Numbered from the stretch's first letter, positions 34,153 to 51,437 are shown. The stretch is DNA of 64,000 bases from Bdellovibrionales bacterium (GCA_965226095.1 OZ245336.1:1481308-1545307); one strand, 5' to 3'. The notes: a model not told the origin generated them from the sequence alone. Program-made: numbers and translations.

Positions 34153-34167
34153 GCTATTCCTATATAA

Positions 34168-34191
34168 CTGAAAGCTCTCTAAGAGCTTCAG
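34168..34191 (+). terminator. possible stem-loop downstream of purD
   Basis: ctgaaAgctct-cta-agagcttcag forms a 10-bp stem with one bulge and a 3-nt loop, 16 nt after the purD stop. There is no T-tract, so this is weak. Confidence 0.25.
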
Positions 34192-34289
34192 TCCCTTGAA
34201 AGCAGGAATCCAGTCAAACCCGTCATTCCGGCCTTGAGCCGGAATCCAGAAAACAAATTTCGTCATTCCGGCCTTGAGCCGGAATCCAG
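34191..34289 (+). repeat. REP/NIME-like hairpin repeat block (3 units)
   Basis: One variant unit (cttgaaagcaggaatccag) plus two exact copies of cgtcattccggccttgagccggaatccag, with 8-bp arms ATTCCGGC/GCCGGAAT. Lies between the purD stop and the 3' end of OMP paralogue 1. Confidence 0.95.
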
Positions 34290-34319
34290 TCAGCTTCTCA
34301 ACTTTACATTACTCTTGGC

Positions 34320-34925
34320 TTAAAAATAGTATCTGCCTTTTACTTCAAAGAAAGGCATTGGAACAAGAAGGAAAAGTGTCTTTCCTCCTGCATCATTATC
34401 ATAAAGTAAACTATCTAAAGCTATAGAAGGAGCTAAAGAAGCAACTTTTATTTCAATGGCAATTTCAAATGAATCGTTTATATTAAAATTTCCAAAAACT
34501 CCAAGAAAACTAACTAACATAAGACTCCAATCATCTTTTGGAAAAAACAAATAAGGAACGATGGGTGATACATTTAATCCAAAAGAAAATAAACTATCTC
34601 TCATAAATTCATATCCATACTCAAGATTTAATTTCCCCATCAATGGAGCTTCAAGCAAAACTTCACTAAATGCAGAAGTACCGACATTTATATCTGCAAG
34701 AACATAACCAAAATAATTTGTTGAATCTAAAGTATGTTTGTACCCCAAACCAACACTTATAGAAACACCCGGTTTACTAGAAAGATTCAGTTCTTGAAAT
34801 AATCCAAATGTTGTCAGTTCAACAAAAGTGTTTTTCTGATTTGCACCTGCATACGAAACAGACACACAGAAACAACTTAATAAAATTAAGTGCTTCATAA
34901 CTCGTAAAACATTTTTCAAGTTCAT
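34320..34925 (-). CDS. small outer-membrane beta-barrel protein, paralogue 1 of 4
   Basis: True start taken at the ATG at 34925 (MNLKNVLRVMKHLILLSCFCVSVSYA, a signal peptide). The ORF-track TTG at 34988 is the -35 hexamer. Ends ...FFEVKGRYYF (terminal aromatic, OMP signature). Confidence 0.7.
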   Translation of the reverse strand: MNLKNVLRVMKHLILLSCFCVSVSYAGANQKNTFVELTTFGLFQELNLSSKPGVSISVGLGYKHTLDSTNYFGYVLADINVGTSAFSEVLLEAPLMGKLNLEYGYEFMRDSLFSFGLNVSPIVPYLFFPKDDWSLMLVSFLGVFGNFNINDSFEIAIEIKVASLAPSIALDSLLYDNDAGGKTLFLLVPMPFFEVKGRYYF

Positions 34926-35000
34926 AATAATCTTCTTTTCTATAAAGTTTACAACTGTCATGTTATTTTTATAGCTTAAAATTGTCAAAATAAATTAAAT

Positions 35001-35147
35001 AACACATACAGCTGCCGGCGCGAAAGTAGTTTCAGATATTTGCCGTCATCCCTGTACTGCCGTCATTCCGGCCTTGAGCCGGAATCCAGAAAACAAATCT
35101 CGTCATCCCTGCATCCACCGTCATTCCGGCCTTGAGCCGGAATCCAG
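35001..35147 (+). repeat. composite repeat: GC-rich palindromic module + TTCAGATATTTGC module + 2 hairpin units
   Basis: aacacatacagctgccggcgcgaaagta / ttcagatatttgccgtcatccc / 2x gtcattccggccttgagccggaatccag. Confidence 0.95.
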
Positions 35148-35177
35148 TCAACTTTTTAACGTTACATTACTCTTGGC

Positions 35178-35783
35178 TTAAAAATAGTATCTGCCTTTTA
35201 CTTCAAAGAAAGGTCTTGGCTTAAATGGACTCAACAAAGGTATCTCATCAGAGCGACTGAAAATGTAATAATCTAAGGCTTGAAAAACAGCTTTTACTTC
35301 AATGGCAACTTCAAATGAATCGTTTATATTAAAATTTCCAAAAATTCCAAGAGAACTTGCTAAATTAACGTTCCATTCTTTATCGCTTTGATTTTCGTAT
35401 TTAATAAGTGAAACAAGAGGAAAGACAGGTGATACATTTAACCCAAAAGAAAATAAACTGTCTCTCATAAATTCATATCCATACTCAAGATTTAATTTTC
35501 CGGCAAGTATGTAGTGCTCATCAGAAACGAGTCCACCAGTAAATACAGATGTACCAATATTTACATCTGCCAAAACATAACCAAAATAGTTATTGGAATC
35601 TAACTCATACTTGTATCCCAAACCTCCACCTACAACAAAAACCACATCAAATGATACTACTTCGCTTGTTGTTAGCTCAACAAAAGTATTTTTCTTATTT
35701 ACACCTGCATACGAAACAGATACAAAAAAACAACTTAATAAAATTAAGTGCTTCATAACTCGTAAAACATTTTTAAAGCTCAT
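35178..35783 (-). CDS. small outer-membrane beta-barrel protein, paralogue 2 of 4
   Basis: ATG at 35783 lies 6 nt after AAGGAG. Signal peptide MSFKNVLRVMKHLILLSCFFVSVSYA. Conserved blocks GLGYKYELD..NYFGYVLAD, GKLNLEYGYEFMRDSLFSFGLNVSP, FGNFNINDSFEVAIEVKA, FFEVKGRYYF. Confidence 0.75.
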   Translation of the reverse strand: MSFKNVLRVMKHLILLSCFFVSVSYAGVNKKNTFVELTTSEVVSFDVVFVVGGGLGYKYELDSNNYFGYVLADVNIGTSVFTGGLVSDEHYILAGKLNLEYGYEFMRDSLFSFGLNVSPVFPLVSLIKYENQSDKEWNVNLASSLGIFGNFNINDSFEVAIEVKAVFQALDYYIFSRSDEIPLLSPFKPRPFFEVKGRYYF

Positions 35784-35817
35784 AATAATCTCCTTTTTTA
35801 TAAAGTTTACAACTGTC

Positions 35818-35846
35818 ATCTTATTTGTATAGTTTAAAATTGTCAA
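35818..35846 (-). promoter_or_regulatory. sigma-70-type promoter of OMP paralogue 2 (TTGACA-N17-TAAGAT)
   Basis: The reverse strand reads TTGACAattttaaactatacaaaTAAGAT. The same architecture is conserved upstream of all four paralogues, with -35 hexamers at 34983-34988, 35841-35846, 37831-37836 and 38694-38699. Confidence 0.65.
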
Positions 35847-35926
35847 AATAAATTAAAAAACCAGCTAATAACACACCCAGCTGCCGGCATGAAAGTGACT
35901 ACTTCCATAAAACTAACATTTTGGAT

Positions 35927-35982
35927 ACCTATCCAAAATATTAGCTAATATTTTTGACACCTATCCAAAATATTAGTACTAT
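35927..35982 (+). promoter_or_regulatory. candidate promoter TTGACA-N17-TACTAT embedded in an 18-bp direct repeat
   Basis: acctatccaaaatattag occurs twice (35927-35944 and 35959-35976). The -35 TTGACA is at 35954-35959 and the -10 TACTAT at 35977-35982, 10 nt before the ATPase ATG at 35993. Confidence 0.45.
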
Positions 35983-35992
35983 ACTAGGTACG

Positions 35993-37102
35993 ATGAAAAG
36001 GTATTTAAAACAAGCTATTTTGGAAGACATAAAAAGTAAAATGGTGTTTGTATCCGGTCCAAGGCAAGTGGGAAAAACCACTCTCTGTCTTGATTTAGCT
36101 CCAAAAAAACACCGTTATATGAATTGGGATATTTTAACAGACAGAGAGTTTATTTTAAGACAAAAGTTCCCTGTAGAGAAATTCATTATTTATGATGAAA
36201 TTCATAAATTCACAAAGTGGCGTAATTATCTCAAAGGACTTTATGATAAACATAAACCGCAAAAAAAAATTCTCGTCACAGGAAGTGCCCGTTTGGATTA
36301 TTATAGACATTCCGGTGATTCTTTACAGGGAAGGTATCATCATCATCGTCTCCACCCTTTTACTGTGCGGGAGTTAAATATAAAAAGTCAAAAAGACATT
36401 ATGGATCTTCTGCATTTGGGAGGTTTCCCTGAACCTTTTTTATCCGGTTCTCATAGGCAGGCGAAGCGATGGATGCGGGAATACAGAAGTCGTGTGGTTA
36501 ACGAGGAAATTTCTTCCCTGGAGCTTTCTAAAAATTTATCTCAAATGGAGCTTCTCCTGTTAAAACTTCCTGAAAGGATAGGCAGTCCTTTATCCATCAA
36601 TTCTTTAAGAGAAGATATGGATGTTGCTCATAAAACTCTCTCCAAATGGCTCAATATTTTTGAAAGAATGTACCTGATTTACAGAGTTTCTCCTTTTCAT
36701 TCTAATAAGTTTAGAGCATTAAAAAAAGATCAAAAACATTACCATTACAACTGGGCGGAGGCGATCAATGACGGAGCAAAATTTGAAAACATGATGGCCG
36801 GGCACTTATTAAAATGGGTTCATTTCCAGCAGGATTACAATGGGAAGAACATAGATCTTTGTTATTTTCGGGATGTAGATAAAAGAGAGGTGGATTTTAT
36901 TATAACTGAGAACAAAAGACCAATTCAGGCTATAGAGTGTAAGTGGCAGTCAAAAGAGATTTCACCTTCTTTAAAATATTTTAAGTCAAAATTTTCAAAG
37001 ACGGAATGCATACAGGTTAATATGATTTGTCCAAAAGAATACATCTCGAAAGAAGGAATTAAAAACCTAAGCTGGAACACCTTATTGCACAAGCTGATTT
37101 AA
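35993..37102 (+). CDS. AAA-type ATPase (AAA_14 + DUF4143-like architecture)
   Basis: ATG at 35993 (MKRYLKQAILEDI...). Walker A GPRQVGKTT and Walker B IIYDEIHK. C-terminal EVDFIITE...IECKW resembles the DUF4143 nuclease-like tail. The ORF-track TTG at 35954 coincides with a -35 hexamer. Confidence 0.7.
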   Translation: MKRYLKQAILEDIKSKMVFVSGPRQVGKTTLCLDLAPKKHRYMNWDILTDREFILRQKFPVEKFIIYDEIHKFTKWRNYLKGLYDKHKPQKKILVTGSARLDYYRHSGDSLQGRYHHHRLHPFTVRELNIKSQKDIMDLLHLGGFPEPFLSGSHRQAKRWMREYRSRVVNEEISSLELSKNLSQMELLLLKLPERIGSPLSINSLREDMDVAHKTLSKWLNIFERMYLIYRVSPFHSNKFRALKKDQKHYHYNWAEAINDGAKFENMMAGHLLKWVHFQQDYNGKNIDLCYFRDVDKREVDFIITENKRPIQAIECKWQSKEISPSLKYFKSKFSKTECIQVNMICPKEYISKEGIKNLSWNTLLHKLI

Positions 37103-37110
37103 GGATATTA

Positions 37111-37137
37111 GTCATTCCTGCGGAAGCAGGAATCCAG
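37111..37137 (+). repeat. hairpin repeat unit, variant stem
   Basis: gtcattcctgcggaagcaggaatccag, with arms ATTCCTGC/GCAGGAAT. Lies immediately 3' of OMP paralogue 3. Confidence 0.9.
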
Positions 37138-37179
37138 CCAATTTTTCAATTATCAGATAAACGTTACATTACTCTTGGC

Positions 37180-37773
37180 TTAAAAGTAGTATCTACCTTT
37201 TACTTCAAAACCAGGCTGTGGATAAAATGGACCCAAAATGGAGCTCTTTTTCTCATCAGAGTTGCTAAGAATGTAATAATCTAAAGTCGTAAAAATAGCT
37301 TTTACTTCAATTGCAACTTCAAATGAATCGTTTATATTAAAATTTCCAAAGATTCCAAGAGTACTGTTTAAATTAAGACTCCACTTTCTATCGCTTTGAT
37401 TTTCGTATTTAGTAAATGAAACAACAGGTATAACAGGTGACACATTTAATCCAAAAGAAAATAAACTATCTCTCATAAATTCGTACCCATACTCAAAATT
37501 TAATTCTCCGTATGCGCGACCGAAACCAGTAAGAGCAGCACTAACATTTAAATCTGTTAGAACATAACCAAAGTAGTCTTTTGAACCTAAATCGTATTTA
37601 TACCCTAAACCTCCACCTATATTAAAGTCCATCCCTATAGACGATACCTCTCCTGATGTTGTCAGTTCAACAAAAGTGTTTTTCTTATTTACACCTGCAT
37701 ACGAAACAGATACAAAAAAACAACTTAATACAATTAAGCGTTTCATAACTCGTAAAACATTTTTAAAGCTCAT
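37180..37773 (-). CDS. small outer-membrane beta-barrel protein, paralogue 3 of 4
   Basis: ATG at 37773 after AAGGAG. Same conserved blocks as the other paralogues, with divergent loop segments. Confidence 0.75.
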   Translation of the reverse strand: MSFKNVLRVMKRLIVLSCFFVSVSYAGVNKKNTFVELTTSGEVSSIGMDFNIGGGLGYKYDLGSKDYFGYVLTDLNVSAALTGFGRAYGELNFEYGYEFMRDSLFSFGLNVSPVIPVVSFTKYENQSDRKWSLNLNSTLGIFGNFNINDSFEVAIEVKAIFTTLDYYILSNSDEKKSSILGPFYPQPGFEVKGRYYF

Positions 37774-37866
37774 AATAATCTCCTTTTTTATAAAGTTTAC
37801 AACTGTCATCTTATTTGTATAGTTTAAAATTGTCAAAATAAATTAAGAAGACAACATAATATTAAA

Positions 37867-37981
37867 ATAACACCCAGCTGCCGGCGCGTAAGTAAGTCAT
37901 TCCTGTCACTGTCGTCATGCCTGCGAAGGCAGGCATCCAGAAAAAAAGTTCATCCCTGTGAAAACAGGGACAGGAATCCAG
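37867..37981 (+). repeat. composite repeat: GC-rich palindromic module + 2 variant hairpins
   Basis: aataacacccagctgccggcgcgtaagtaa, then gtcatgcctgcgaaggcaggcatccag (arms ATGCCTGC/GCAGGCAT), then ccctgtgaaaacaggg...ggaatccag. Confidence 0.9.
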
Positions 37982-38024
37982 TCAACTTTTCAATTATCAG
38001 ATAAACGTTTACATTACTCTTGGC

Positions 38025-38636
38025 TTAAAAATAATATCTGCATTTTAGTTCAAAATGAGGTATTGGAAAAAAGTCAGTCCTAACAAATCCTTCTTTTAAA
38101 TTACCAAGTAACATTCTATTTAAAAATCGATAAACAGCTTTTATTTCAATGGCAACTTCAAATGAATCGTTTATATTAAAATTTCCAAACATTCCAAGAG
38201 AACTCGTAAACATAAGATCCCAATCCGTACGGCCTTTACGATTTTCAGAGATAGACAAATCACGACCTTTAAAAATAGACACAGAAGAAATAATGGGTGA
38301 TACATTTAACCCAAAAGAAAATAAACTATCTCTCATAAATTCATATCCATATTCAAGATTTAATTTTCCAGCCAATATAGCTTCCCCACCAGTAAGTGCA
38401 GGAGTACCAATATTTATATCTGCCAAAACATAACCAAAATAGTTGTTAAAATCTAACTCATACTTGTATCCCAAACCTCCACTTATATAAATACCTCCTA
38501 AAAATGATACTATTCCATTTGTTGTCAGTTCAACAAAAGTATTTTTCTTATTTACACCTGCATACGAAACAGATATGCAGAAACAACTTAATACAATTAA
38601 GCGTTTCATAATTTGTAAAATATTTTTAAAGCTCAT
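38025..38636 (-). CDS. small outer-membrane beta-barrel protein, paralogue 4 of 4
   Basis: ATG at 38636 after AAGGAG. Signal peptide MSFKNILQIMKRLIVLSCFCISVSYA. Ends HFELKCRYYF. Confidence 0.75.
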   Translation of the reverse strand: MSFKNILQIMKRLIVLSCFCISVSYAGVNKKNTFVELTTNGIVSFLGGIYISGGLGYKYELDFNNYFGYVLADINIGTPALTGGEAILAGKLNLEYGYEFMRDSLFSFGLNVSPIISSVSIFKGRDLSISENRKGRTDWDLMFTSSLGMFGNFNINDSFEVAIEIKAVYRFLNRMLLGNLKEGFVRTDFFPIPHFELKCRYYF

Positions 38637-38728
38637 AATAATCTCCTTTTTTACAAAATTTATAACTGTCATGTTATTTATATAGCTAAAAAATGTCAAA
38701 ATAAATCAAATAACCAGCATAGTATGAA

Positions 38729-38782
38729 ATAACACACCCAGCTGCCGGCAGGTAAGTAACTTCAGGTATTTGCTGTCACTCC
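38729..38782 (+). repeat. GC-rich palindromic module + TTCAGGTATTTGC module
   Basis: ataacacacccagctgccggcaggtaagtaacttcaggtatttgctgtcactcc. Confidence 0.9.
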
Positions 38783-38791
38783 TTTAAGGGT

Positions 38792-38980
38792 TCAATTATC
38801 CTTAGAAAAGTCTTCTGCTTCATATTTTTGAAGGATGTGGTGACAACGATTTTTTATAGATAAAAACAACTCTCCTTTAAGAGAAAAATCTGCTTTTGTA
38901 ATTAAATCACATCGACTATCTGCACTCATTTTTTTTAGATGCCTCTTTACATCCTGCACACTTCTTTGAGGATTAAACAC
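38792..38980 (-). CDS. small ORF; likely the 3' remnant of a 109-codon gene split by the HAD insertion
   Basis: 62 aa. Codons 11-15 (VKRHL) are encoded by the 17-bp repeat that also occurs in ORF 39681..39914, in the same codon phase. Confidence 0.35.
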   Translation of the reverse strand: MFNPQRSVQDVKRHLKKMSADSRCDLITKADFSLKGELFLSIKNRCHHILQKYEAEDFSKDN

Positions 38981-39705
38981 TACACTACAATACCATATCC
39001 ACCATAAGTCCTTGTCAATGACAGTGCTGGTATGTCTGTCGGACCATCTCCTATATAAATAAAGTTACTAAATGGACTCCAAAATTCGCCCCGTTGCACC
39101 TTATCATTAACAGCCTGTACCTTAGATTCTTCTGTAAAAACTCCTTTGGATATCTCATATAAAGCTCTTGTTTTCATTGTTTGATCCATACAAAAAACAG
39201 GAATACTCTCTACATCATCTTTCTTTCCCGGCGGATACACACAGCTATATCGACAACCCCAGATATTTGAAAATATTTCTTTAGGTACTAAAGATTCCAC
39301 ATACTCCTTTAAACCAGCTGTAATAATAAACTGATGAATTTTTATATTACTGTTTTTAAATTTGATTTCTTCTTCAATTTTTTTAATTTTTCCCAACAAA
39401 CTTTCAACTCCTGAATATAATTTCACCAATTCAGTGACTTCTTCATGAGAAAAAAATTCTTTTGTTAATGGTTTCTTCCCATGAAAAGCTATTCGTGATA
39501 AAACATACATCCATGTAGGCGCATCAGATGAAAGCATTCTCTCCCAATCAACTTCAGATTTTGAACCACTCACTGTTTTAATCCACTCCCAAAATTTTTC
39601 TATTTTTTCTGTACCTAAAAAGTACTCAACAATTTCTGATGTAGAATCATCTGGAGTAAGTGTACCGTCAAAATCCCAAACTATAGATATATTTCTGTGA
39701 GGCAT
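38980..39705 (-). CDS. HAD-superfamily hydrolase
   Basis: 241 aa. Motif I VWDFDGTLT (DxDxT) and motif IV IYIGDGPTDIPAL (GDGxxD). Confidence 0.7.
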   Translation of the reverse strand: MPHRNISIVWDFDGTLTPDDSTSEIVEYFLGTEKIEKFWEWIKTVSGSKSEVDWERMLSSDAPTWMYVLSRIAFHGKKPLTKEFFSHEEVTELVKLYSGVESLLGKIKKIEEEIKFKNSNIKIHQFIITAGLKEYVESLVPKEIFSNIWGCRYSCVYPPGKKDDVESIPVFCMDQTMKTRALYEISKGVFTEESKVQAVNDKVQRGEFWSPFSNFIYIGDGPTDIPALSLTRTYGGYGIVV

Positions 39706-39914
39706 GATTGATTATATGTTTCTGCGCTTAGATGCCTCTTTACAGATCTGCTTTTGGTAGCATTGTTGTTAGAAACTAACCGCCCAGTTCGAGAATCCCT
39801 ATGAACAGGCATATCAAGTATACCAAAATTGGACACATCATACCCATGAGAATTAATATGCTTTGTTGGTACTTTAGTTTTAGAAGATGATTTTTTCTTG
39901 CTCATATTTGACAA
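39681..39914 (-). CDS. small ORF; likely the 5' remnant of the gene split by the HAD insertion
   Basis: 77 aa, Ser/Lys-rich. Codons 58-62 (VKRHL) lie on the second copy of the 17-bp repeat. The tail overlaps the HAD start. Confidence 0.35.
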   Translation of the reverse strand: MSNMSKKKSSSKTKVPTKHINSHGYDVSNFGILDMPVHRDSRTGRLVSNNNATKSRSVKRHLSAETYNQSCLTEIYL

Positions 39915-40150
39915 TTACTATACCTAAATATAACTGTTCAAGCAATACATTAATGCTTACAGCAATATAATAAAAAAATTATCTTATCAAGTCTCCACCT
40001 TGGTCTTAAACTCTATATTTTATTCTTACATAATGCACAACTGCTGACACAAAAATCATTTCAGGTATAGGTCACCATTTTGACATAAGATAATTTATAC
40101 GAAATTCGGATCTCGTTCAGATTTCGCACAAACCAAAAATTACACAATCA

Positions 40151-40200
40151 AATAACACACCCAGCTGCCGGCAGGTAAGTAAACCTAGATATTTACTGCT
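40151..40200 (+). repeat. GC-rich palindromic module + (C)TAGATATTTAC module, overlapping the 3' end of the next gene
   Basis: aataacacacccagctgccggcaggtaagtaaacctagatatttactgct. The last 6 codons and the stop of ORF 40185..42197 are supplied by the repeat. Confidence 0.9.
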
Positions 40201-42197
40201 ACACCTATTCCCAGTTCAGTGTTTAACATATCACGCCAGGCTTCGTAAATCATAACCATTGCAAGAGTGTCCAGTTCACAATACTTAAGTAAGGCAGACT
40301 CAAGTTCTTTTTTCTCATACTCGCTTATTTCACTAAATTGCATCCTTCCATAAGCAGTTAAAGCTGCTCCACCATTGGATAATTCATCTTCTTCTGATAA
40401 CAGACTCATATTCTTATCCGACACATCCTGAAACATTTTAGGTAGCCGTTTATAGGGTTCAACAATACTCCCTTCTTTCCATTCAATCCATTTCCAATCC
40501 TTAAAGTTCAAGCTTTTTATACCTTCTGAAGAACCATAAATAGGCTTGCTGTATTTCTCTTGCAAAAATTTTGAGGAGTTTAACACAGCAGGAAGGACTT
40601 GCTTAATAGAATTTGATCCTTTGGTATAAGGAGCATAGAAAAACCTTTTTACCAATTCGTACATATCCACCATACACCTATCACCTTCCCATTTTTCAGA
40701 ATTTGACCGGTTGGATTTTGTAATAGATTTTATAAATTCACAAAGAACCTTTCTGTCTGGAATATTGTTTTGGTCTTCTAACAACTGACGATAAATTTTA
40801 TTTAAATAGGTATTCTCATGACTTGCATATCTAAATATAGTGCCCTTATCTTTTTCAAGCTCACTCTTTAATTGTCTTACAAACTCATAGTTAGGAAAAA
40901 CACCTTGTTTTGTATTTAAAAATTGTCCGGCATGTTCTATTGTTCCGTCTTCATAGACTACATGGTGAGAAAACTGAAAGGCTACTCCCTCGTAAGGCTT
41001 ACGGCCTTTATTAAAAGGAAAAGCAACAGAGCTTGTTTCAAAGTCAATAAAATGTAATGGGAATATCCATTTGTCCATTTCGTTTTTCATTCCTTGAACA
41101 TCCAGGAAAGGTTTTATTTCTCCTCTCTGGGCCATTTTAACCTGAAGCCATTGTCTCTCACTAGAAGACATACCTGATTTTTTATCTTCTTTAGGACACA
41201 CATCTTCTTCAACCAAACTGGATAATTTGACTTTCCCATTTTGTATCAATTTATCTTTTTTTCTAAAACCACAAATGCTCAAAACATTTTCATCTTCAAA
41301 ATCTTTATCAGACCAATTTAGCTGTGAAGACCAACATTCTTTAAAACCACTTTTAAAACCAGTTTGTTCTTCTTCCTTTGAACAGGTAAATTCACACTCT
41401 GCACACTTTGAACCAATATCTGAAACAATCTTCTCGTCCTTTTCGTATTTCTCAGCTAAAAATGAAACTTCATCAAAAAAGTTTCTATTTCTTTGTTCTG
41501 CTGAATCGTTGCCGTCATAAATCAGTTGAATTTCCTTATCCACAGGAACTTGCACTAAAATTTTCTTATCTAAACATTCTTTAGGTAGAGTATTAGAGAC
41601 CTTAATACCTTTTCTGTTATTTTCATCTCTAATAATTTTAAATTTCTGATTTAAACCTTCAACAGGGCATTTTGCGTTCTTATCTACCAGCATTAAATAG
41701 GATGTAACTGAAGCTTCGGGATAAGCACTTGTCAGAACATATTTTTGAAAAGCTATATCGTATAAGTAGGACTTCCAACTTGATTTTATTGTTGTTCCTT
41801 TTTTACTTAAAAATGGTCTTTCTTTATTCCCATCAAATGACTTGGATTTGACTTCAATAAGTTGAAACTGATTACCTTTTTTAATTAAAACATCAATTCT
41901 TATAAAAAGATTTTTAAATTTGATAGCTGGCTCATAAATAATAACTTCATCTTGCTTCAATAGCTCTAGTGTTTGAGCCTGCGCTTCCTCATAATCAAGG
42001 GTTGTAATATCATGTCCATTAGGAAAATACAGCTTTGCAAGCTCCCCTACTTGATAACCTCCGTCTGCGAGGGCAGAAAGAAAGGGATCATCTATTTTTT
42101 GATTTGGGTATTCTGACTTCCTTGTGTAATAGAGTTTTGTTGGACATTCCAGACCCAATTTAAAGCGTGATTTTGTTAAATATCTATGATTTTTCAT
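40185..42197 (-). CDS. DUF2779-like protein (N-terminal PD-(D/E)XK/Cas4-like nuclease region plus C-terminal DFET exonuclease-like region)
   Basis: 670 aa. N-terminus YLTKSRFKLGLECPTKLYY...IRIDVLIKKGNQFQLIEVKSKS. C-terminal FPLHFIDFETSSVAFPFNKGRKPYEGVAFQFSHHV matches my recollection of the DUF2779 hallmark. Confidence 0.6.
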   Translation of the reverse strand: MKNHRYLTKSRFKLGLECPTKLYYTRKSEYPNQKIDDPFLSALADGGYQVGELAKLYFPNGHDITTLDYEEAQAQTLELLKQDEVIIYEPAIKFKNLFIRIDVLIKKGNQFQLIEVKSKSFDGNKERPFLSKKGTTIKSSWKSYLYDIAFQKYVLTSAYPEASVTSYLMLVDKNAKCPVEGLNQKFKIIRDENNRKGIKVSNTLPKECLDKKILVQVPVDKEIQLIYDGNDSAEQRNRNFFDEVSFLAEKYEKDEKIVSDIGSKCAECEFTCSKEEEQTGFKSGFKECWSSQLNWSDKDFEDENVLSICGFRKKDKLIQNGKVKLSSLVEEDVCPKEDKKSGMSSSERQWLQVKMAQRGEIKPFLDVQGMKNEMDKWIFPLHFIDFETSSVAFPFNKGRKPYEGVAFQFSHHVVYEDGTIEHAGQFLNTKQGVFPNYEFVRQLKSELEKDKGTIFRYASHENTYLNKIYRQLLEDQNNIPDRKVLCEFIKSITKSNRSNSEKWEGDRCMVDMYELVKRFFYAPYTKGSNSIKQVLPAVLNSSKFLQEKYSKPIYGSSEGIKSLNFKDWKWIEWKEGSIVEPYKRLPKMFQDVSDKNMSLLSEEDELSNGGAALTAYGRMQFSEISEYEKKELESALLKYCELDTLAMVMIYEAWRDMLNTELGIGVAVNI

Positions 42198-42237
42198 TTT
42201 AAGGTATCATATCGGATAATTTTGATAAAACTTGAAT

Positions 42238-42353
42238 TTCAGATATTTACAGTCATTCTTGTCACTGCCGTCATTCCGGCCTTGAGCCGGAATCCAGAAA
42301 ACAAATTGTCATTTCTACATCCACCGTCATTCCGGCCTTGATCCGGAATCCAG
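42238..42353 (+). repeat. TTCAGATATTTAC module + 2 hairpin units
   Basis: ttcagatatttacagtcattcttgtcactgcc, gtcattccggccttgagccggaatccag, and a second unit with one arm mismatch (ccttgatccgg). Confidence 0.95.
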
Positions 42354-42490
42354 TCAACTTCTCAATTTATTAATAGCTATTTTAAATCTTATTTGTTCTA
42401 AAATTACCATAGTCTAGTTTAAGCAGTGTTTTTATATATTATTTAGTATAAACCCTTAAGTTGATTTCAAAATAGCCGATAAATTCAATT

Positions 42491-43259
42491 ATGGAAGCAA
42501 CTAAAGAGATTCTTCTTGCTCATCATCGGAGCAAAAAGAGAATCCTTACTTTGGGGAAGTTTTCACCCCTGAGAAATATGTCAATCAAATGTTGGATATG
42601 TTGGACAAGTTGTTTGGATAGATACCAATACTGTTTTTTTTGAGCCAACATGTGGGCACGGAAATTTCGTTGAAGCTATTGTTGAAAGACGGATACACGC
42701 TTTCTTGAGAAAAGCAAAAAGACAAAAGATTAAAAATCCTCATTTCTATACTGTAGCAAATACTTTAAACAATCTATGGGCTATAGATATTGATTCAAAA
42801 AATATAGAGTTTTGCCGAAATAGAGTGAGAACTCTCATTTTCAATTTCCTATTTATCTTTTGAACATGAGAGAAATATTCTATCATCAGCAGATTTTATA
42901 AGAACTAATGAAGATTTTTTAACTCACGTTTTATGCTGTATTGAATGGCAGATACATGAAAACGAAACACTTTCATGTTTGGAGGCAAATGTTCTTAAAG
43001 CCAAAGAGATAGTAAATAGAACGACTGTCAGCAAAAAATGGTTAAAAAAAAATAAACATCGACCCTAAATTTTGAAATGAATTGGTGCCAGTATTTTAAA
43101 GGCTATAAAAGAGAAAACATTATTCCAGATGAATATACAAAGAATTTTAGAGTTATCAATTCATTAGTAAATAGCAAAAAAAAGTATCATAGAAAGAAAG
43201 AAATCTTAGAGACCTTTCCCATGCCAGACTTTAATATCGAAATACCAACAGTCGCTTAA
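42491..43259 (+). pseudogene. remnant of an N6-adenine DNA methyltransferase-like gene (multiple frameshifts/stops)
   Basis: No ORF of 60 aa or more covers 42491-43076. Across two frames one reads YFGEVFTPEKYVNQMLDMLDK and DTNTVFFEPTCGHGNFVEAIVER...LWAIDIDSKNIEFCRNRV, an AdoMet-binding motif I context. No NPPY motif was found, so the extent is uncertain. Confidence 0.45.
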
Positions 43260-43277
43260 AAAAATATAGGAGATTTT

Positions 43278-44718
43278 ATGTCAGCCCAATTAAAACTTAC
43301 TAATGTCAATACCCATGTTGTGGATATTTTGGGCAGTGTTAAAGGACGAGATCAGCCCGTGATGAAAATGGATAAGGCTGTAGAATTAGTCAAATGTTTA
43401 GATGAAGAGTTCTTTATAAATGATGATTATGTATTCTTTGATCCTTTTTTAAAGCTGGAGAAATTTTATTAGCCACAGCTCTTGTTTCAACACTTCATAA
43501 ATCCCAAAAGAAACTTGTGCTTTTGGATGTAGTTTATAACGAGATATATCAGAGTGATAGATACTTTGCTCTAGCTCCTGATGAAAGACACTACAATCTT
43601 AGTCTTAGAACCTTTTATGGAAATGAATAAATCTCATGATAAAAATTTTACTGAAAATATTAAAAATGGTGGCTATCTGTCAGAAATTGACGGACGGCTA
43701 AATAAAGAAAAATTTAACAAGGAGTTAAAAGCTATGCTGGAATATATCAAAGAAAAAACCAGAAATAAAAAAATTGTTGCTGTTGGAAACCCTCCTTACC
43801 AAGAAGAAGATGAAGGTCACGGAAAAAGTGCCAAACCTGTTTATAATATTTTTATTGAATCTCTAATTGATTCACAGGAAATTAGTAAGTTTTCTTTAGT
43901 TATCCCTGCTCGTTGGTTTTCTGGAGGTAAAGGGTTAGATAATTTTCGTAATAGAATGATAATAAATAAAAAACTTAAAAAAATAACTTACTTTGAAAAT
44001 TCTTCTTTTATTTTTCCAACTGTAGATATTAGAGGCGGAATATTGGGATAAATTTATAGGAGAAACTACTATTGATAACGGAAAAAAAACAAAGAAATGA
44101 TCTTTCTAAATGGGACATTTTGTCCCCCATGTTGAAGCACATTCAATACTTAATAAAGTATTGAATAGGAGTGATACATTTGTTTCTGAAGCAGTGTGGT
44201 CAAGAAAACCTTTTGGTTTGTCCGGCGATTATTTTTTAAAAAATAAAACAGATCACTCTAAATCAGATCAATTTGTTGAATGTTTAAGTGTAGGAAAACA
44301 AATTAATAAAATTCCTAAAGAACTAGTCCTAACAAATAAAAACAAAGTAAATGAGTATCAGATAGCTTTTCCAAGAGCTTCTGGTGGCGGTAAAGGTAGA
44401 AGAGATCAAATTCTCCTACGGCCAAAACATTTTTTTATTTTGGGAAAAGGACAAATCTCAACAGAAACATATAGTGTAGCTCATAGTTTTAAGGATAGAA
44501 AAGAAGCTGAAAACTTTTTATTATTTTTACAAACTTTTGCGAGATTTTTATTAGGACTCAGAAAACCAACACAAGATACGAAAAGAAATACTTTTGCATG
44601 GATTCCACTAATGGATGCTAAAAAGTCTTGGACAGATGAGGAATTGTTTAAACATTTTGGTATCAATAAAGAAGAGCAAAAATATATTATAGAACAAGTA
44701 GAGAAATGGACAGCTTAA
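43278..44718 (+). pseudogene. adenine-specific DNA methyltransferase (NPPY class), disrupted by several frameshifts and stops
   Basis: Good RBS (taggag) before the ATG at 43278. Three ORF pieces (43278-43472, 43581-44051, 44110-44718) plus an alternate-frame stretch (GEILLATALV...). Catalytic VGNPPYQ. C-terminal WTDEELFKHFGINKEEQKYIIEQVEKW is typical of these methylases. Confidence 0.7.
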
Positions 44719-44791
44719 CAAGTTTTTAATATTGAAAACTTGTTATAGCTTCAAAAGGAAAATTTTTGTGAAAAAAAGAATACGCCGGTCA

Positions 44792-45475
44792 ATGATACTT
44801 ACTCAAAAATTAGAAGGTATCTCAAAAAAAATATTTGAAAGATATAAAAAAAAAGTAATCCTATATATTGGAAATAAACCAGGAGTATATGCTCTTTATG
44901 ATGAAAAAGAGTTATACTATGTAGGTCGTGCCTCTGATTTGGCAAAAAGAGTTAATGATCATTTGAAGGATCGACATTCTGCACTTTGGACTCATTTTTC
45001 AGTTTATTTTACTAAAAAAGCACAATATGCAAATGATATAGAAGCTGTAATTATTTCTGTAGCACAACCTAAAGGAAATAAAGAAACACCCAAATTGGGA
45101 AAAGAAAAAAAACTTAAAGATATTCTTAGAAAAGCTATAAAAGAGAGTCACCAAGAAGAATTAAGAGAACTAGGGTTGAGTAGAAAAAAACAAGTTGATT
45201 TAAAGAAAAAGAGAAAAAGGAAAAATAGACCTGTCTTAAAAAATTATTTTAATAAAAACAAACCTTTAATGAAATCTTATAAAGGTAAAATCTATAAGGC
45301 TGTATTGCTGAAGTCAGGTAAAATTAAATATAATAAGAGAGAGTATGATACTCCCACTTCAGCTGCAGAAGCGATTGTAAAAATGCATTTACCAAATTCA
45401 GCTGTTAATGGTTGGTATTTTTGGTTTATTAAAGATTCTGAAAACAATTGGATTAAGTTAAACGAACTGGATTAA
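44792..45475 (+). CDS. GIY-YIG nuclease-domain protein with DUF4357-like C-terminal domain
   Basis: GVYALYDEKELYYVGRASDLAKRVNDH (GIY...YVG...R). C-terminal YDTPTSAAEAIVKMHLPNSAVNGWYFW resembles the SPSxAA...NGW motif of DUF4357. ATG at 44792; the ORF-track TTG is at 44732. Confidence 0.65.
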   Translation: MILTQKLEGISKKIFERYKKKVILYIGNKPGVYALYDEKELYYVGRASDLAKRVNDHLKDRHSALWTHFSVYFTKKAQYANDIEAVIISVAQPKGNKETPKLGKEKKLKDILRKAIKESHQEELRELGLSRKKQVDLKKKRKRKNRPVLKNYFNKNKPLMKSYKGKIYKAVLLKSGKIKYNKREYDTPTSAAEAIVKMHLPNSAVNGWYFWFIKDSENNWIKLNELD

Positions 45476-45489
45476 GAAAGGTAATTAAT

Positions 45490-47894
45490 ATGTCTGAAAA
45501 ATTAGAACTTTATGTTTATACTACAAACACTTGGCAAGAAAAAGGTTTGTTAAAGGTGGGACATTGTTTGAGAGGACGACATGAAGAGCGTATCAATGAA
45601 CAATTTAATGCCAGTAACCCTGATAAACCTAAAATTCTGTGGTTCGTAGAGTTGCCAGAGGGAAAAACAGATAAGCATATTCATCAACAATTAATAGATA
45701 ATGGGATTAAACATAAAGAAGATGGTGCAGGAACAGAATGGTTTTATGCAAATTTAGAGGATGTAAAAACCGCTTATAATCAAATGATTTGTGGGGTTAA
45801 ACGAACAGACCGTTTTCCTTTGAGAAGAGAACAGAAAGAAGCTGTAGATAAAGCTGTTAAATGGTTTAACAAAGACTATTCTTATAAGACAATAGATTCA
45901 GCTACTCATAAAAACAGGTTTTTATTAAATGCTAAAATGAGATTTGGAAAATGTTTTACTGGTATCCATATTGCAAAAGCTATTGAGGCAAAAAAGACCA
46001 TTATTGTTACCTATAAACCAAGAGTTATTGAGGAGTGGATGAATGCTGTCAATAACCATGTAGATTTCAAAGATTGGACAGGAATCAGAGCAAAACAAGG
46101 AGAAAATAGAAATGAACTTTTTCTTAATGAAATAGGTGATTTTCCTGAACATTCAGATTCTTTAGTCTTATGTGTGTCTTTACAGGATTTGGATATTGAT
46201 GATCAGGGAAATGTAAAAGGCCGGCTCAAAAAAGTTTTAGAAACAAAATGGGACTTACTTATTTTTGATGAAGTGCATTTTGGAGGAAGAACGAATAGAT
46301 TTAAGAATATTTTAAAATACTTAGATCCACAATTTCGCCTTGAGCTTTCTGGAACTCCTTTTCGTCTCATTGGAACAGTAGATTTTTGCCCTGAACAGGT
46401 TTTTACCTACAGTTATCTTGATGAACAGAAAAATAAGAAACAAGAGATTCAAAGTGACCCAGAACAAAAACAACTTTTTATTTATAGACAAATGCCAAAT
46501 TTGAATCTTTCTACTATAGAAATTACAGATAAAGATATAAAACATCAAAAAGAAAAATTTATGACAGATGACAGGGACTTTTCTTTAAATGAATTATTTA
46601 AAGCAACTAATTCAGGTTTTATTCATAATGATGCTGTAGATCACTTTTTAGAAAGTCTGTCAAAAAGAGATTATGGGGCTACTGCTTTGAGTGTTTATGG
46701 AAAATTAGGAGAACAGTTAGGTCTTTCAAACAAAAGACATAGTATTTGGTGGTTAAAGTGTTCAGTCTATTAAGCAACTTATAAAAAAGTCTAAAACATC
46801 ATCCTATTTTTTCTCAATATGAAATTATCAATGCGGCTGGTGGAAAAGCTGGTGATGATTTATCTGATGACGATTTATCTGATGAAATTTTTGCAAAAAA
46901 CAAAAAAGATATAATAAACACAATTGAAAAGGTTAATACCAATGAAATTAACAAGATTGGCACAATAACACTTACTTGTAGGAAATTTTTAACAGGTGTT
47001 ACTATTAAACAATGGGATTCCATGTTGATATTAAATGATATTCAATCGGCAGAAAGTTATTTTCAAGCTATTTTTCGGATTCAATCAGCTTGGTTTGATA
47101 GAGAATATAATAAAGTGTTAAAGCCTGTGGGATATGTTTTTGATTTTGCTATTTCTCGTTGTTTACGAACTACTTATAGTTATGCAAATGCTTTGGCTGA
47201 TCAGTTAGATCAACAGGACAGTTCTAAATATCAAGCTTGTAGGAATAGTAATTTAGTGAAGGTAATTGACGGTTTCTGTGACACTTTGAACATCAAACAA
47301 TTTTATGAGGGAAGTTTAAAGAGTGATCCTGTAACTTCTCGGCAAATATTTGAAGCAATAGCCAGTGAAGGTTCTGTAGTTGCTTTAGCCAAAAGAATTA
47401 CCAGTGATGTTTTGGTGTCCTTTCCTTCTCTATCTCTTTTGGAGAGTTATCCACACTTGTTTGAAGCATTAAAAAATGTGAAAGGTTACAGAAGTCAGCA
47501 AGCTGGTAGCCTTGAGGATTTTATTCGAATAGGAGATGAAGCTAAAAGAAAAAAGTTAGAAAAAGATAAATTAGAACCTAATGATGAAAAAACTGCAAAA
47601 GATAATGAAGATTTTGTAGAAAAAGATAAAGATAAAGATAAGAAAAATAAAAAGAAATGGTATGCGACACAAATTAAAAGATTGGCCATTTGTATGGCTG
47701 ATTTTATTTATATGACTTATAAAAGAGAATATAAAATTGATGAAGTTATCGAAACAAAGTATCCAAAATTTTTTAAAACTGTTACAGGTATCAGTAAAGA
47801 TGATTTTTGTGAACTTTGTGAAAAAGGGTTTATACATAAGAGTCACTCAATCGTATTGTTAGAGAGTTTGCCTTCCGAGAAGAAAGCTCTGTAA
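45490..47894 (+). pseudogene. T5orf172/GIY-YIG-like N-terminal domain + DEAD/DEAH-type helicase, interrupted
   Basis: N-terminus LYVYTT...GLLKVGH...GTEWFYANLEDV. Walker A-like AKMRFGKC and DEVH box (LLIFDEVHFGG). Frame 1 stops at 46773. The homologous text continues in frame 3, which has its own TAA at 46782-46784 and is open from 46785 (HHPIFSQYEIINAAGG...QAIFRIQSAW) to 47894. Confidence 0.65.
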
Positions 47895-47982
47895 AACCAG
47901 AAGAATATATTTTTGAGCATATACAACAAATTACGGATAAAAAATCCGCTTAAAATCTTAAAATTATTTAGTTTTTTTAAAT

Positions 47983-48018
47983 GACTGGATTCTTGCTTTC
48001 GCAGAGGTAGGAATCCAG
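47983..48018 (-). repeat. degenerate hairpin repeat unit (reverse orientation)
   Basis: gactggattcttgctttcgcagaggtaggaatccag, with CTGGATTC...GAATCCAG arms. Confidence 0.7.
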
Positions 48019-48045
48019 AAAACTAAAACCTATTATTTATATGTT

Positions 48046-49251
48046 CTATTTTCGTAAGTAATAACTCCACTTCCCTCTGACTTTATTATGTTTAGAAAAT
48101 ATAAATTGATTGTGATTAGCACACAACAGTCTTAAGTTATCAGGCTCACTTGTGCCACCTAACGAAAAAGGTTTAATGTGATCTATTTGCAACAAGTGAT
48201 TGGATGAACATCTTCTTTTTGTCTTTGGACAAATATAAGTACACTGCCCCTGATCTCTCATCCACACATGATGTCTCACTACTGAAGGAATATATCTTGT
48301 GTATTTTGAATGTTTTTTTGTTGTTTGTTCTAAAGAAGCTTTTTTGAATGTGCTTTTACTTTGTTTATTTAATTTTCGTTTAGGATCATATTTGTCTAAA
48401 CCCAGTTCTGCTAGTAGTGTGAATAACTCTCCATAGGACATATTGGGATTTTTATGTGATAAGAGCTTTTTTAAATCTTCCAGGTTTTGCTGACAATTTT
48501 TGTCCAAAATTACTTTTATCTCTACTTTATCATTATTTATATCTCTAACTTTTTCTTTTGAAATGGGAATTTCAGGATCTATCTCAAAAAGTGTCTTTTC
48601 CAACTCACGACTGGACTGACCTTCCGCTTTTTGTATTAAATCCAGTTTTTGAGTAGAATTTAACTCCAAAGTGGTTTTATTTTTTTGCTTATCCTCTAAT
48701 TTGTTCTCTTCTTTTTTGCCTTCATCCGCATTGTTATTAACGCACCCAGCTGCCGGCAGGTAAGTAGACTTAGAATCACACCCCTTTAAATTGCTTTCTT
48801 TAAGTGTTTTATCCTTCCTTCTCTTTTTCTCAAAAAAAGTTTGTAATTGAGAAGCTGTAGTTAAGTTTAAACTTCCACTTTTTATCTTTGGTGTGGCTTG
48901 TGGGATATCACGGCATAATCTCATAGCTTTAATTCTCCTATAAGCAGCACTGTGACTATAATCCAATTCCTTAATGGCATATTCAAATAGGCTAGGAAAA
49001 CCTCTTTTAAGATAGAGCTTTCTACTTTCTATTTCCTGTAAGTGTTGCAGCACTTGGATATTGATTTGTCTTTCTTTTTGAACCAGATTTTTTTGTGAAA
49101 GCAATTGGTCATTGCTGAGTTTTTTTAAATTTGTATTTATTTTTATTTCTGTACTTGTATTGACTGGATTCCTGTCCCTGTTTTCACAGGGATAAACTTT
49201 TTTTTCGCAGGAATGACGACGTATATTTTGTTTTTCCTGTTGTATGTACAT
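48046..49251 (-). CDS. HNH endonuclease (DUF222-like N-terminal region) carrying repeat-element insertions
   Basis: C-terminal HNH motif: QCTYICPKTKRRCSSNHLLQIDHIKPFSLGGTSEPDNLRLLCANHNQF. N-terminal LQEIESRKLYLKRGFPSLFEYAIKELDYSHSAAYRRIKAMRL. Codons 10-32 and the STYLPAAGCV segment are encoded by repeat modules. Confidence 0.75.
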   Translation of the reverse strand: MYIQQEKQNIRRHSCEKKVYPCENRDRNPVNTSTEIKINTNLKKLSNDQLLSQKNLVQKERQINIQVLQHLQEIESRKLYLKRGFPSLFEYAIKELDYSHSAAYRRIKAMRLCRDIPQATPKIKSGSLNLTTASQLQTFFEKKRRKDKTLKESNLKGCDSKSTYLPAAGCVNNNADEGKKEENKLEDKQKNKTTLELNSTQKLDLIQKAEGQSSRELEKTLFEIDPEIPISKEKVRDINNDKVEIKVILDKNCQQNLEDLKKLLSHKNPNMSYGELFTLLAELGLDKYDPKRKLNKQSKSTFKKASLEQTTKKHSKYTRYIPSVVRHHVWMRDQGQCTYICPKTKRRCSSNHLLQIDHIKPFSLGGTSEPDNLRLLCANHNQFIFSKHNKVRGKWSYYLRK

Positions 49252-49450
49252 AAAAAATACCTCCTATGTTGTTACTGTTACCTTTATAAGGGAAAAACAA
49301 TATAACATGGGTTTTTAAAAGAGATTTTTATAAGGGTGGAGCTTAGTTATAGCTTCAAGCTTTAAGGCACCTGATAGCTTCATAAATAGGTTGTTTTACT
49401 CTTAAGCTTTAAAAAACATTTAGATGATAGAAAAAAAGCAACCACGATGA

Positions 49451-49515
49451 AATATAAGCATCAAAAATCCTGTCAAGATTTTTTACAATAAGAACAGTGT
49501 GTAAATTAAATATAC
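49451..49515 (+). promoter_or_regulatory. conserved ~65-bp upstream element with near-palindrome AAAAATCCTGTCAAGATTTTT (copy A)
   Basis: aatataagcatcaaaaatcctgtcaagattttttacaataagaacagtgtgtaaattaaatata. A second copy is found at 50207-50271. Lies about 110 bp upstream of ORF 49623. Confidence 0.5.
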
Positions 49516-49622
49516 TAATTTTAATTTTTTTCATACATTAGTCTAAATTTTTACACATTTTTTCAGAGTTTTTTTAATATAACCCTTTAGATTGAAACTA
49601 AGTAGGCCGATAAAGTTATGTC

Positions 49623-50189
49623 ATGGAGGCAATCGAGAATATTCTGCAATTTATATATTATCGGAGTAAAAAAGAATCCGAAGTTTTAAAGCAGTTTTCA
49701 TTTTTGAAAAATATGTTAGAAATAATAAAAATAATTTTAATATCAATATTACTTGTATTTAGCTTTAATAGCTACTCACTGTTAGCTTTAGATTGTAAAG
49801 ATTTAAAAGGATTAAGTCTTAGAAATGAAAAATTTTCGAAGGACAGCTTTTCTAAGGCTCGTCTACTTATTACATTTTTTAGTAATAACAATAGTATGTT
49901 CTATAATTGGAATCAAAATACAGGAACTTTTGTTGATATGTGGAATAGCATTAAAGGATTTGAAGAATTAAAAGTTGTGCAAAGTAACTCTAATATGGCT
50001 TTAGGGTATTCAGTTAAAAATGGTTTAGAAGGTATAAGGATTCATTTTAAAAAGAAAACAGCTGTATATGCTAAACATGTAGCACCTCTTATTGATGGCT
50101 TTGGGACAGACGGTATTTATAAAATGAAGTGTATTGATGTAACACAAGAGTTACAACAGGTTACAAAAAGTAGCAATAAGGAAAATTAA
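49623..50189 (+). CDS. hypothetical secreted/membrane protein
   Basis: 188 aa. Internal Met followed by a hydrophobic segment (MLEIIKIILISILLVFSFNSYS), so the real start may be downstream. No recognisable domain. Confidence 0.35.
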   Translation: MEAIENILQFIYYRSKKESEVLKQFSFLKNMLEIIKIILISILLVFSFNSYSLLALDCKDLKGLSLRNEKFSKDSFSKARLLITFFSNNNSMFYNWNQNTGTFVDMWNSIKGFEELKVVQSNSNMALGYSVKNGLEGIRIHFKKKTAVYAKHVAPLIDGFGTDGIYKMKCIDVTQELQQVTKSSNKEN

Positions 50190-50206
50190 AAAGAACGAAT
50201 ATAAAA

Positions 50207-50271
50207 AATATAAGCATCAAAAATCTTGTCAAGATTTTTTACTAGTAAAACAATGCGTAAATTAAATGTAT
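50207..50271 (+). promoter_or_regulatory. conserved ~65-bp upstream element with perfect 10-1-10 palindrome AAAAATCTTG-T-CAAGATTTTT (copy B)
   Basis: aatataagcatcaaaaatcttgtcaagattttttactagtaaaacaatgcgtaaattaaatgta. Lies about 55 bp upstream of ORF 50326. Confidence 0.5.
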
Positions 50272-50325
50272 AAATAATTTAAAGTTCTTTAAGATCATGT
50301 CAATATACTTATAAAGAGGTAAGTA

Positions 50326-50929: not shown

Positions 50930-51004
50930 TATTTTCTCCTTTATTACTTAATGAAAGTAAGAATTGTATTCATAAACTTATCAGTTGATCAAATATTTTT
51001 TTTA

Positions 51005-51431: not shown

Positions 51432-51437
51432 AAAGAA

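Follow-up and report, generated by a model that had tools for sequence, protein, structure and literature searches.

Four closely spaced, related genes in a 64,000-nucleotide stretch of DNA from a Bdellovibrionales bacterium (GCA_965226095.1, OZ245336.1:1481308–1545307; the whole stretch is called here the window) raise the question of whether they encode a surface protein that is being diversified, and by what means. The original prediction, made from the sequence alone, regarded them as cassette-like paralogues of a small outer-membrane (OM) beta-barrel with four hypervariable surface loops, bracketed by repeats that could drive duplication or gene conversion. According to the data obtained here, W1–W4, as we designate the window paralogues 1–4, most probably encode small Sec-exported 8-stranded OM barrels of about 175 amino acids (aa) in mature form, which belong to a lineage-restricted family and exchange their loops; we estimate the probability of this reading as roughly 0.72.

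With starts taken at the ATG located 6 nucleotides (nt) past an AAGGAG box, four intact open reading frames (ORFs) of 197–203 aa were found on the minus strand, spanning positions 34320–38636, and the expected set of four paralogous genes of about 200 aa was thus confirmed. Their relatives were considered in loci designated L001–L011 (the first eleven related loci), including L002, L003a/b, L004, L005, L006, L008, L009 and L011. The longer annotated start (MTVVNF...) was rejected, since the −10 box and this ATG overlap, and L003a, L004 and L006 show no conservation of the additional N-terminal residues. In the alignment of the four copies pairwise identity to W1, which has the most divergent loops, is 60–64%, mean column identity is 72%, and long invariant runs are present. 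Promoter scan and alignment confirmed that near-identical promoters, the ribosome-binding site (RBS) and the signal peptide are common to all of them, together with five conserved blocks and a 22-nt 3′ motif. All five blocks exist, as had been stated, though with small deviations in three copies: GYKH in copy 1, LGSKD, LTD and GELNF in copy 3, and a terminal ELKCRYYF in copy 4. The stop codon with the 3′ motif, TTACATTACTCTTGGCTTAAAA, has an exact 22-nt match in all four copies against 0 expected by chance, which substantiates the claim of a conserved 3′ untranslated region (UTR), and its part GCCAAGAGTAATGTAA was found in L002 and L005 too. In 9 of 10 homologous loci the −35 region hardly varies. 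No Rfam family was registered in the whole window, and the conserved 5′ and 3′ UTRs are therefore not known RNA elements.

Start-to-start spacing along the array is 858, about 2000 and 863 nt, and the larger gap is occupied by an AAA_14/DUF4143 ATPase gene, so that the array consists of two tandem pairs; the convergent arrangement of W3 with this gene is the same in L002 and L005. Sensitive tblastn and nhmmer searches of all 64 kb detected the four full-length units alone, with no donor copy that is truncated or lacks a promoter. The label “cassette-like” is therefore misleading, all four being complete expression units. An integron-like cassette array was rejected as well, because every gene is separately promoted and the scanned island ORFs contain no integrase domain. 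Phase-variation repeat tracts were not detected in the genes by TRF, the longest homopolymer being 7 nt. In the mechanism that we propose each copy would be complete, with a near-identical strong promoter, RBS and signal peptide, which would allow a cell to display up to four loop sets at once; neither a silent-donor arrangement nor a repeat-based on/off switch would be involved.

All four proteins start with a signal peptide, MSFKN..LILLSCFFVSVSYA/G, in which sequence inspection distinguishes a basic n-region, a hydrophobic core and the signal peptidase I site SYA/G (the slash marks the predicted cleavage point). The lipoprotein reading of the conserved LLSC was rejected, also by inspection: the hydrophobic stretch before Cys is too short, basic residues lie inside it, and the standard SYA/G site follows. 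AlphaFold2 (AF2) presented the signal peptide as a detached N-terminal helix (residues 3–21 or 3–28), followed in both models by eight long strands that make a barrel. For W2 (15 sequences) the predicted local distance difference test score (pLDDT) was 77 and the predicted template-modelling (TM) score (pTM) 0.68; for W4 (58 sequences) they were 84 and 0.74, and all five models of W4 scored 82–84. The 13-residue insertion that distinguishes W4 coincides with loop 3 (residues 124–136). The top Foldseek matches in PDB were 8-stranded OM barrels (1qjp, 1p4t, 4rlc, 3qra and 1qj9; probability 1.00), the best ones being OmpA-TM (1qjp, TM 0.77, root-mean-square deviation 3.4) and OprF-N (4rlc, TM 0.76); NspA (1p4t, E=3.5e-5 and 7.6e-5), Ail and OmpX were also found. 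The barrel is thus a prediction from AF2 and Foldseek rather than a solved structure, but two models and their PDB neighbours agree on the eight strands that had been predicted. All copies finish with ...K(G/C)RYYF, Phe being the terminus, and an Omp85-family gene is present in the window at 17381–18496. In W4 residue 198 (38037–38039) is Cys in place of an otherwise conserved Gly (ELKCRYYF vs E[VL]KGRYYF); the closest allele to W4, in L002, retains Gly of the C-terminal assembly motif. This substitution might weaken membrane insertion of copy 4.

Variability taken from ten close genes was projected onto the AF2 models, and it turned out to be distributed in accordance with the barrel topology. 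Mean entropy of the odd connections (beta1–2, 3–4, 5–6 and 7–8) is 1.29 vs 0.43 in the even turns, which are represented by the nearly invariant LDSNNYFG, MRDSL and INDS. Gaps are present in 39 of 62 columns of the odd connections and in none of the 17 columns of the even turns, and the outer halves of strands show an entropy of 1.28 vs 0.30 for the inner halves (p=2e-10). Without exception, variable segments and indels are located in the odd-numbered connections, taken together with the outer strand halves. As a general rule, the termini and the short turns of OM barrels are periplasmic, and by analogy the odd connections are probably the extracellular loops, which agrees with the assignment of the variable segments to four surface loops and not to periplasmic turns. 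Confidence in the predicted fold and in the topology of variation is high.

Exchange between copies was studied by segment-by-segment identity matrices and by the maximum-chi-square test on triplets with permutation, with reference to the variable segments (V1–V4) and the conserved blocks (C1–C5). Four triplets, those of L003b, L002, L005 and W2, gave p<=0.0005. In L003b the segments V1, C2, V2 and V4 are of W3 type at 91–100% identity, and the signal peptide, C1, C3, V3 and C5 match its tandem neighbour L003a. The gene of L002 is W2-like through C2 and W4-like from V2 on (V3 94%, V4 98%); L005 has a W4-type V4 (95% identity), and W2 itself is a W3/W4/W3 mosaic. Within the window the longest-identical-tract test singled out 105 nt common to W2 and W3, which extend from the promoter into the coding sequence (CDS; p=0.0018), 33 nt common to W2 and W4 (p=0.003) and 53 nt at the 3′ end of W1 and W2 (p=0.046). 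Synonymous divergence (dS) between W2 and W3 is only 0.06 in the region of the signal peptide vs 0.56 in the scaffold, which argues for recent conversion there. The expected signs of recombination and gene conversion were thus obtained by both tests, but the four stretches do not “differ completely”, as had been supposed: they do vary, though W2 and W3 have a common V3 (79% at the nt level, KYENQSD) and part of V4 (69%).

Some loop segments are 94–100% identical between loci, the housekeeping flanks of which are only 81–87% identical, and this means that loop-coding DNA is either transferred from species to species or preserved across several of them. None of the mapped breakpoints is at the repeats; they fall in the promoter and in conserved blocks of the scaffold. 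Homologous recombination, the crossovers of which lie in the conserved blocks, swaps loops as blocks among the paralogues and among related species. Judging from the aligned sequences, recombination among copies and species is assigned with high confidence.

Selection was evaluated by Nei–Gojobori estimates of the ratio of nonsynonymous to synonymous divergence (dN/dS). Scaffold blocks of the four window copies have dS of 0.17–0.56 and dN/dS of 0.07–0.28, so that their conservation is due mainly to purifying selection and not to recent duplication. Since flanking housekeeping genes of related species differ by dS of 0.3–0.64, the paralogues are about as old as the species. Purifying selection maintains the membrane-embedded lower half of the barrel, all three turns on the periplasmic side and the assembly signal ...GRYYF at the C-terminus. 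For the variable segments dN/dS is 0.65–1.76, and mean pN/pS (the corresponding ratio of proportions of differences) over ten genes is 1.09: the extracellular loops and outer strand ends evolve without purifying constraint, in-frame indels included.

Loop values close to 1 and not clearly above it would also be expected from an ordinary tandem family, in which the loops of old duplicates drift neutrally and mosaics reflect background homologous recombination, with no adaptive surface variation. The age of the paralogues, comparable in scaffold dS to that of species, fits such an origin, as do the two copies of L011, which are 92% identical and lack hypervariable loops. Yet free drift is not expected to leave loop alleles nearly identical in species with much more diverged flanks; all four copies retain intact frames, promoters and assembly signals, and the variation keeps exactly to the face predicted to be exposed. 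We consider this explanation unlikely.

Several circumstances nevertheless weigh against our main reading. Loop dN/dS of about 1 is compatible with relaxed constraint as well as with diversifying selection; the loops are close to saturation and difficult to align with certainty, and only about ten close sequences were available, all from metagenome assemblies. The barrel was oriented by the general topological rule, and that the protein is located in the OM, is exposed there and is expressed from all four copies is our inference. Participation of the hairpin repeats in recombination is hypothetical; the mapped breakpoints lie inside the genes. Our confidence in adaptive surface variation is accordingly moderate, and in any specific ligand or selective agent it is low.

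Copy number at the purD-linked locus differs between related species: four in the window, one in L002 (flank identity 87%), where the gene adjoins AAA_14, one in L004 (81%), where a PDDEXK_2 gene is present, and one in L005, between AAA_14 and DUF2779. In L008, a circular genome of 1.70 Mb with 87% flank identity, the locus contains no copy, and no family member attributable to this genome was recovered in the protein database. Two tandem copies are present in L003 at an exbBD-linked site. Distant relatives are located after atpC: one copy in L001, between atpC and alaS, and the two copies of L011, which lie on either side of another AAA_14 gene. The variation of the locus among relatives, with 4, 1, 1, 1 or 0 copies and different loop combinations, is thus in line with expectations, though it was seen in a comparison between related species. 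As the models also give a barrel and the variable segments avoid the periplasmic turns, the interpretation of the genes as OM barrels with diversifying loops is supported. The signature is remarkably clear and combines a conserved barrel with four reassorting loops, 0–4 copies between sister species and loop alleles common to different species.

The source of the window is a metagenome-derived contig of 1.55 Mb, and strain variants of a single-copy gene might have been strung in tandem during assembly. Besides, the short-read contig L009 of the same strain (Logan ERR14231558), which is 100% identical to positions 26789–34248 of the window, stops at 34248 within the first hairpin array, and this independent assembly indicates that the repeats break short-read assemblies at the locus. 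Still, the copies differ by 26–40% in protein, have distinct flanks and different hairpin variants, and are separated as pairs by the AAA_14 gene; collapsed variants would not normally produce an ordered series in which units of 858 and 863 nt are joined by unique junctions, and L003 has two tandem copies independently. An artefact of this kind is thus highly improbable. In L003 (7742–10726) the duplicated unit consists of a barrel gene followed by a gene for a secreted Cys-rich protein of 212–213 aa with no Pfam match; the N-terminal halves of its two copies are nearly identical and the C-terminal halves diverged.

Table 1. Coordinates of the genes, expression signals and repeats of the array and its island (positions of the window)
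Feature	Position	Strand	Remarks
W1 CDS	34320..34925	-	201 aa; ORF and translation; profile hidden Markov model (HMM) and nhmmer matches
W2 CDS	35178..35783	-	201 aa; AF2 model md887c13b72d0
W2 variable segments	V1 35625-35666; V2 35502-35558; V3 35352-35426; V4 35208-35291		
W3 CDS	37180..37773	-	197 aa; convergent with AAA_14 gene
W4 CDS	38025..38636	-	203 aa; 13-residue insertion in loop 3; AF2 model mc8b23d24fb4f
AAA_14/DUF4143 ATPase gene	35954..37102	+	Pfam; PADLOC candidate PDC-S01, E=2e-50
Sigma-70-like promoter of W1, TTGACA-N17-TAACAT	34960..34988	-	promoter scan, 10/12 matches
Equivalent promoters, TTGACA-N17-TAA[C/G]AT	35818-35846; 37808-37836; 38671-38699	-	10/12 matches each
Conserved 3′ UTR motif GCCAAGAGTAATGTAA	34304..34319	-	directly 3′ of stop codon
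Motif GCCAAGAGTAATGTAA, other copies	35162-35177; 37164-37179; 38009-38024	-	
Variable island purD-ftsK with the four genes	34187..51441		low G+C; hairpin arrays inverted at edges
Array of three CGTC-tagged hairpins (CGTCATTCCGGCCTTGAGCCGGAATCCA)	34187..34288	+	between purD and W1; left island edge
Further CGTC-tagged hairpins	35061-35146; 37111-37136; 37913-37980		
Linear motif GCCGGCAGCTG(G/T)	35005..35019	-	about 45-60 nt upstream of each -35 box
Linear motif GCCGGCAGCTG, other units	35874-35888; 37871-37885; 38735-38749		
Linear motif GCCGGCAGCTG, outside units	40158-40172; 48743-48757		

The genes belong to a 17-kb defence island, at which synteny with L002, L004, L005 and L008 breaks. 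The rest of it (38980–47894) is of defence-like or mobile character and encodes a HAD-type protein matching PADLOC candidate PDC-S34, a DUF2779 protein, a GIY-YIG+RAMA protein (PDC-S14), ResIII/T5orf172 and fragments of a split Eco57I-type methylase and of a type IIG restriction-modification enzyme; gene content of the island differs in every related species. This environment, with PDC-S01, PDC-S34, PDC-S14 and restriction-modification fragments as neighbours, suggests that the barrels could be a phage receptor or a target of antagonists included in the defence repertoire, whose loops and copies would serve to escape or decoy phage adsorption and not for contact with a host. The number of copies (4, 1 or 0) is typical of accessory defence content, and in five loci, among them the distant atpC-linked L011, barrel genes are adjacent to AAA_14/DUF4143. 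On the other hand, searches of PADLOC, PHROGs and phage and plasmid records gave no match to the protein, and some homologues have a core environment free of defence genes (L001, with atpC and alaS as neighbours; L003, beside exbBD). The fold does not discriminate, since both phage receptors and host adhesins are known among small 8-stranded barrels. We regard a dedicated role of this kind as conceivable but doubtful, though somewhat more probable than neutral drift.

Returning to loop exchange between paralogous surface barrels as the preferred reading, the barrels most likely function at the cell surface, as an adhesin or receptor target, and their exposed face would be diversified under pressure from some recognising agent, be it phage, host, prey or competitors. 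The CGTC-type hairpins and the defence-island setting may make the locus a hot spot for interspecies DNA exchange. The surface biology of these uncultured bacteria with reduced genomes is almost unstudied, and the family marks a likely point of their contact with host, prey or phage.

The AAA_14 gene neighbours homologues of the barrel gene in L002, L004, L005 and L011. AAA_14/DUF4143 (PDC-S01) stands beside barrel genes in two unrelated contexts, purD-linked and atpC-linked, and L011 has two such genes within 4 kb. Between species it is 94–95% identical, with flanks identical by 81–87%, which suggests that the gene may be mobile or often exchanged. Its predicted promoter is overlapped by two tandem 32-nt units (35913–35976), each with an internal palindrome (CTAACATTTTGGATACCTATCCAAAATATTAG), which look like a double operator site.

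None of the four proteins was assigned to a family by Pfam-A hmmscan (E<=1) or NCBIfam, and they have no match in PHROGs or PADLOC. The word-indexed search of 5.8 billion proteins yielded 15 sequences, four of which are the window's own, and the exhaustive HMM search of 1.84 billion cluster representatives yielded 61 at E<=0.001. Among distant relatives only 2 of 58 reach the OMP_b-brl profile PF13505, and weakly (E>=2.7e-4); the family profile found nothing significant among PDB sequences, with OmpX (E=0.45) as the best. Scanning of JGI metagenome contigs gave no relative of the barrel protein, and scanning of GTDB genomes gave a single distant one, L001. No match was obtained by tblastn in 50,697 phage and 72,556 plasmid records, and origin from a phage moron or a plasmid is therefore unsupported. 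The signature YGYEFMR-x3-FSFG at periplasmic turn 2 is specific to the family. With OmpA-TM, OprF-N and OmpX/Ail/Lom, which are the best fold matches (TM 0.55–0.77 normalised by target), the proteins have in common their size class, eight strands, short periplasmic turns, long outer loops and C-terminal aromatic residue, but no match to curated profiles or to sequences of solved members of the OmpA/OmpX/OmpW class was found, and periplasmic OmpA_C is lacking. The barrels thus constitute a lineage-restricted, previously undescribed and unclassified family, which acts like a known kind of protein, Opa-like variable surface proteins, and adds an unannotated and very rare member to the small OM barrels.

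The closest functional analogue is the Opa family of Neisseria, though by sequence the proteins failed to qualify for it. Like Opa and its relative NspA, the latter being among the top two structural matches, they are 8-stranded OM barrels with four surface loops, hypervariable on a conserved barrel. Like opa genes, they are represented by several complete, separately promoted loci with mosaic alleles arising from recombination between loci and strains, in a region rich in CGTC-type (dRS3/NTS-like) hairpins. They differ in the absence of any sequence relationship (PF02462 is not matched by the window proteins in Pfam at E<=1) and of pentamer or homopolymer phase-variation tracts in the coding region, in clustering of the copies in tandem in one island instead of dispersal, and in the organism itself, an uncultured low-G+C bacterium with a genome of about 1.5 Mb. 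Loop 4 of Opa is conserved; in the window family all four loops vary. Segmental conversion of variable blocks framed by conserved sequence also brings to mind pilE/pilS and Anaplasma msp2/p44, but there an expression site is supplied by promoterless truncated donors, which the window lacks, having four full-length units.

As to the repeats, which had been supposed to bracket each unit, two types were registered. Hairpins with the sequence CGTCATTCCGGCCTTGAGCCGGAATCCAG are CGTC-tagged; 15 CGTC-tagged hairpins are present in the window vs about 0.9 expected, 14 of the 15 fall within the island (34.2–51.4 kb), and all these 14 have a CCA tail. The hairpin motif GGAATCCAG is found downstream of every unit (13 in the window vs 0.46 expected). 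Folded as single-strand DNA, the hairpin has an 8-bp stem, −8.7 kcal/mol and z=−4.0; a second one has z=−4.6. The motif GCCGGCAGCTG stands upstream of every unit (7 in the window vs 0.18 expected). The claimed bracketing is thus correct for both positions, but the second element is not a hairpin: GCCGGCAGCTGGGTG consists of two adjacent 6-bp palindromes, is linear and folds no better than shuffled sequences (z=−0.13). Both types also adjoin other island genes. Moreover, L008 has both types and no barrel gene, and L003 and L006, in which this gene occurs, have neither, so that the repeats are features of the island and not of the gene unit. They can be regarded, therefore, neither as parts of the gene units nor as the cause of duplication. 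Two island repeats lie in frame within an HNH-endonuclease ORF (48046–49251, minus strand), a hairpin close to the 5′ end, at about 49164–49217, and GCCGGCAGCTGGGTG at 48743–48757; they may be comparable to coding-sequence insertions such as Rickettsia palindromic elements, or the true start may be located further downstream.

The analogy with Neisseria proved to be closer than originally claimed, because the hairpins are of the same class as dRS3/NTS, namely the CGTC-tagged repetitive extragenic palindromic (REP) class, defined so as to include Neisseria dRS3 (PMC3733652). We compared them with dRS3/NTS repeats and NIME arrays of Neisseria (PMC3733652, PMC1797815, PMC11893778). Common to them are a CGTC/TGTC head, a stem of 8–9 bp starting with AT, a loop of 3–5 nt and a CCA tail, as well as arrays that are interleaved with other short repeats and surround variable genes; the sequence of NTS, CGTCATTCCCGCGMAVGCGGGAATCYRG, resembles the window repeat CGTCATTCCGGCCTTGAGCCGGAATCCAG. 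At the same time the hairpins match neither the NTS pattern (0 matches) nor the published search expression of the Ssn-related motif (SRM), the single SRM match in the window (12463–12489) being unrelated to them. NTS is the target of the GIY-YIG single-strand nuclease Ssn (PMC11893778). A gene for a single-domain Ssn-type GIY-YIG protein (cd10448) was not found in the window or in L001–L011; the only GIY-YIG match in the window is the 247-aa GIY-YIG+RAMA protein (E=0.039).

Since hairpins of the CGTC/NTS-like type of Neisseria surround variable surface genes in an unrelated phylum as well, the proposed link between such repeats and diversification of antigens becomes testable outside Neisseria. 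One can speculate that this lineage has independently assembled the toolkit of Neisseria: a multi-copy barrel with swappable loops lying among oriented NTS-like hairpins, which would be acted on by an Ssn-type single-strand nuclease encoded elsewhere in the genome and would determine the choice of incoming DNA segments for integration, the loop alleles being an interspecies pool. This is rather improbable, but if true, the combination of repeat, nuclease and variable antigen would be a general convergent module of host- or prey-associated bacteria and not a peculiarity of Neisseria.

The hairpins have a wider distribution than the barrels. Their exact 21-nt core, ATTCCGGCCTTGAGCCGGAAT, was found on at least 120 JGI metagenome contigs (L014–L133) with G+C content of 31–67%, and so is not lineage-specific. 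The GTC head is kept in 124 of 136 metagenome copies of the core, and the CCA-type tail is conserved too. In eight metagenome loci an ORF with a single GIY-YIG domain (about 90 aa, PF01541, E~1e-14) is located 0–1.1 kb from the core, which matches the published association of Ssn with its repeats.

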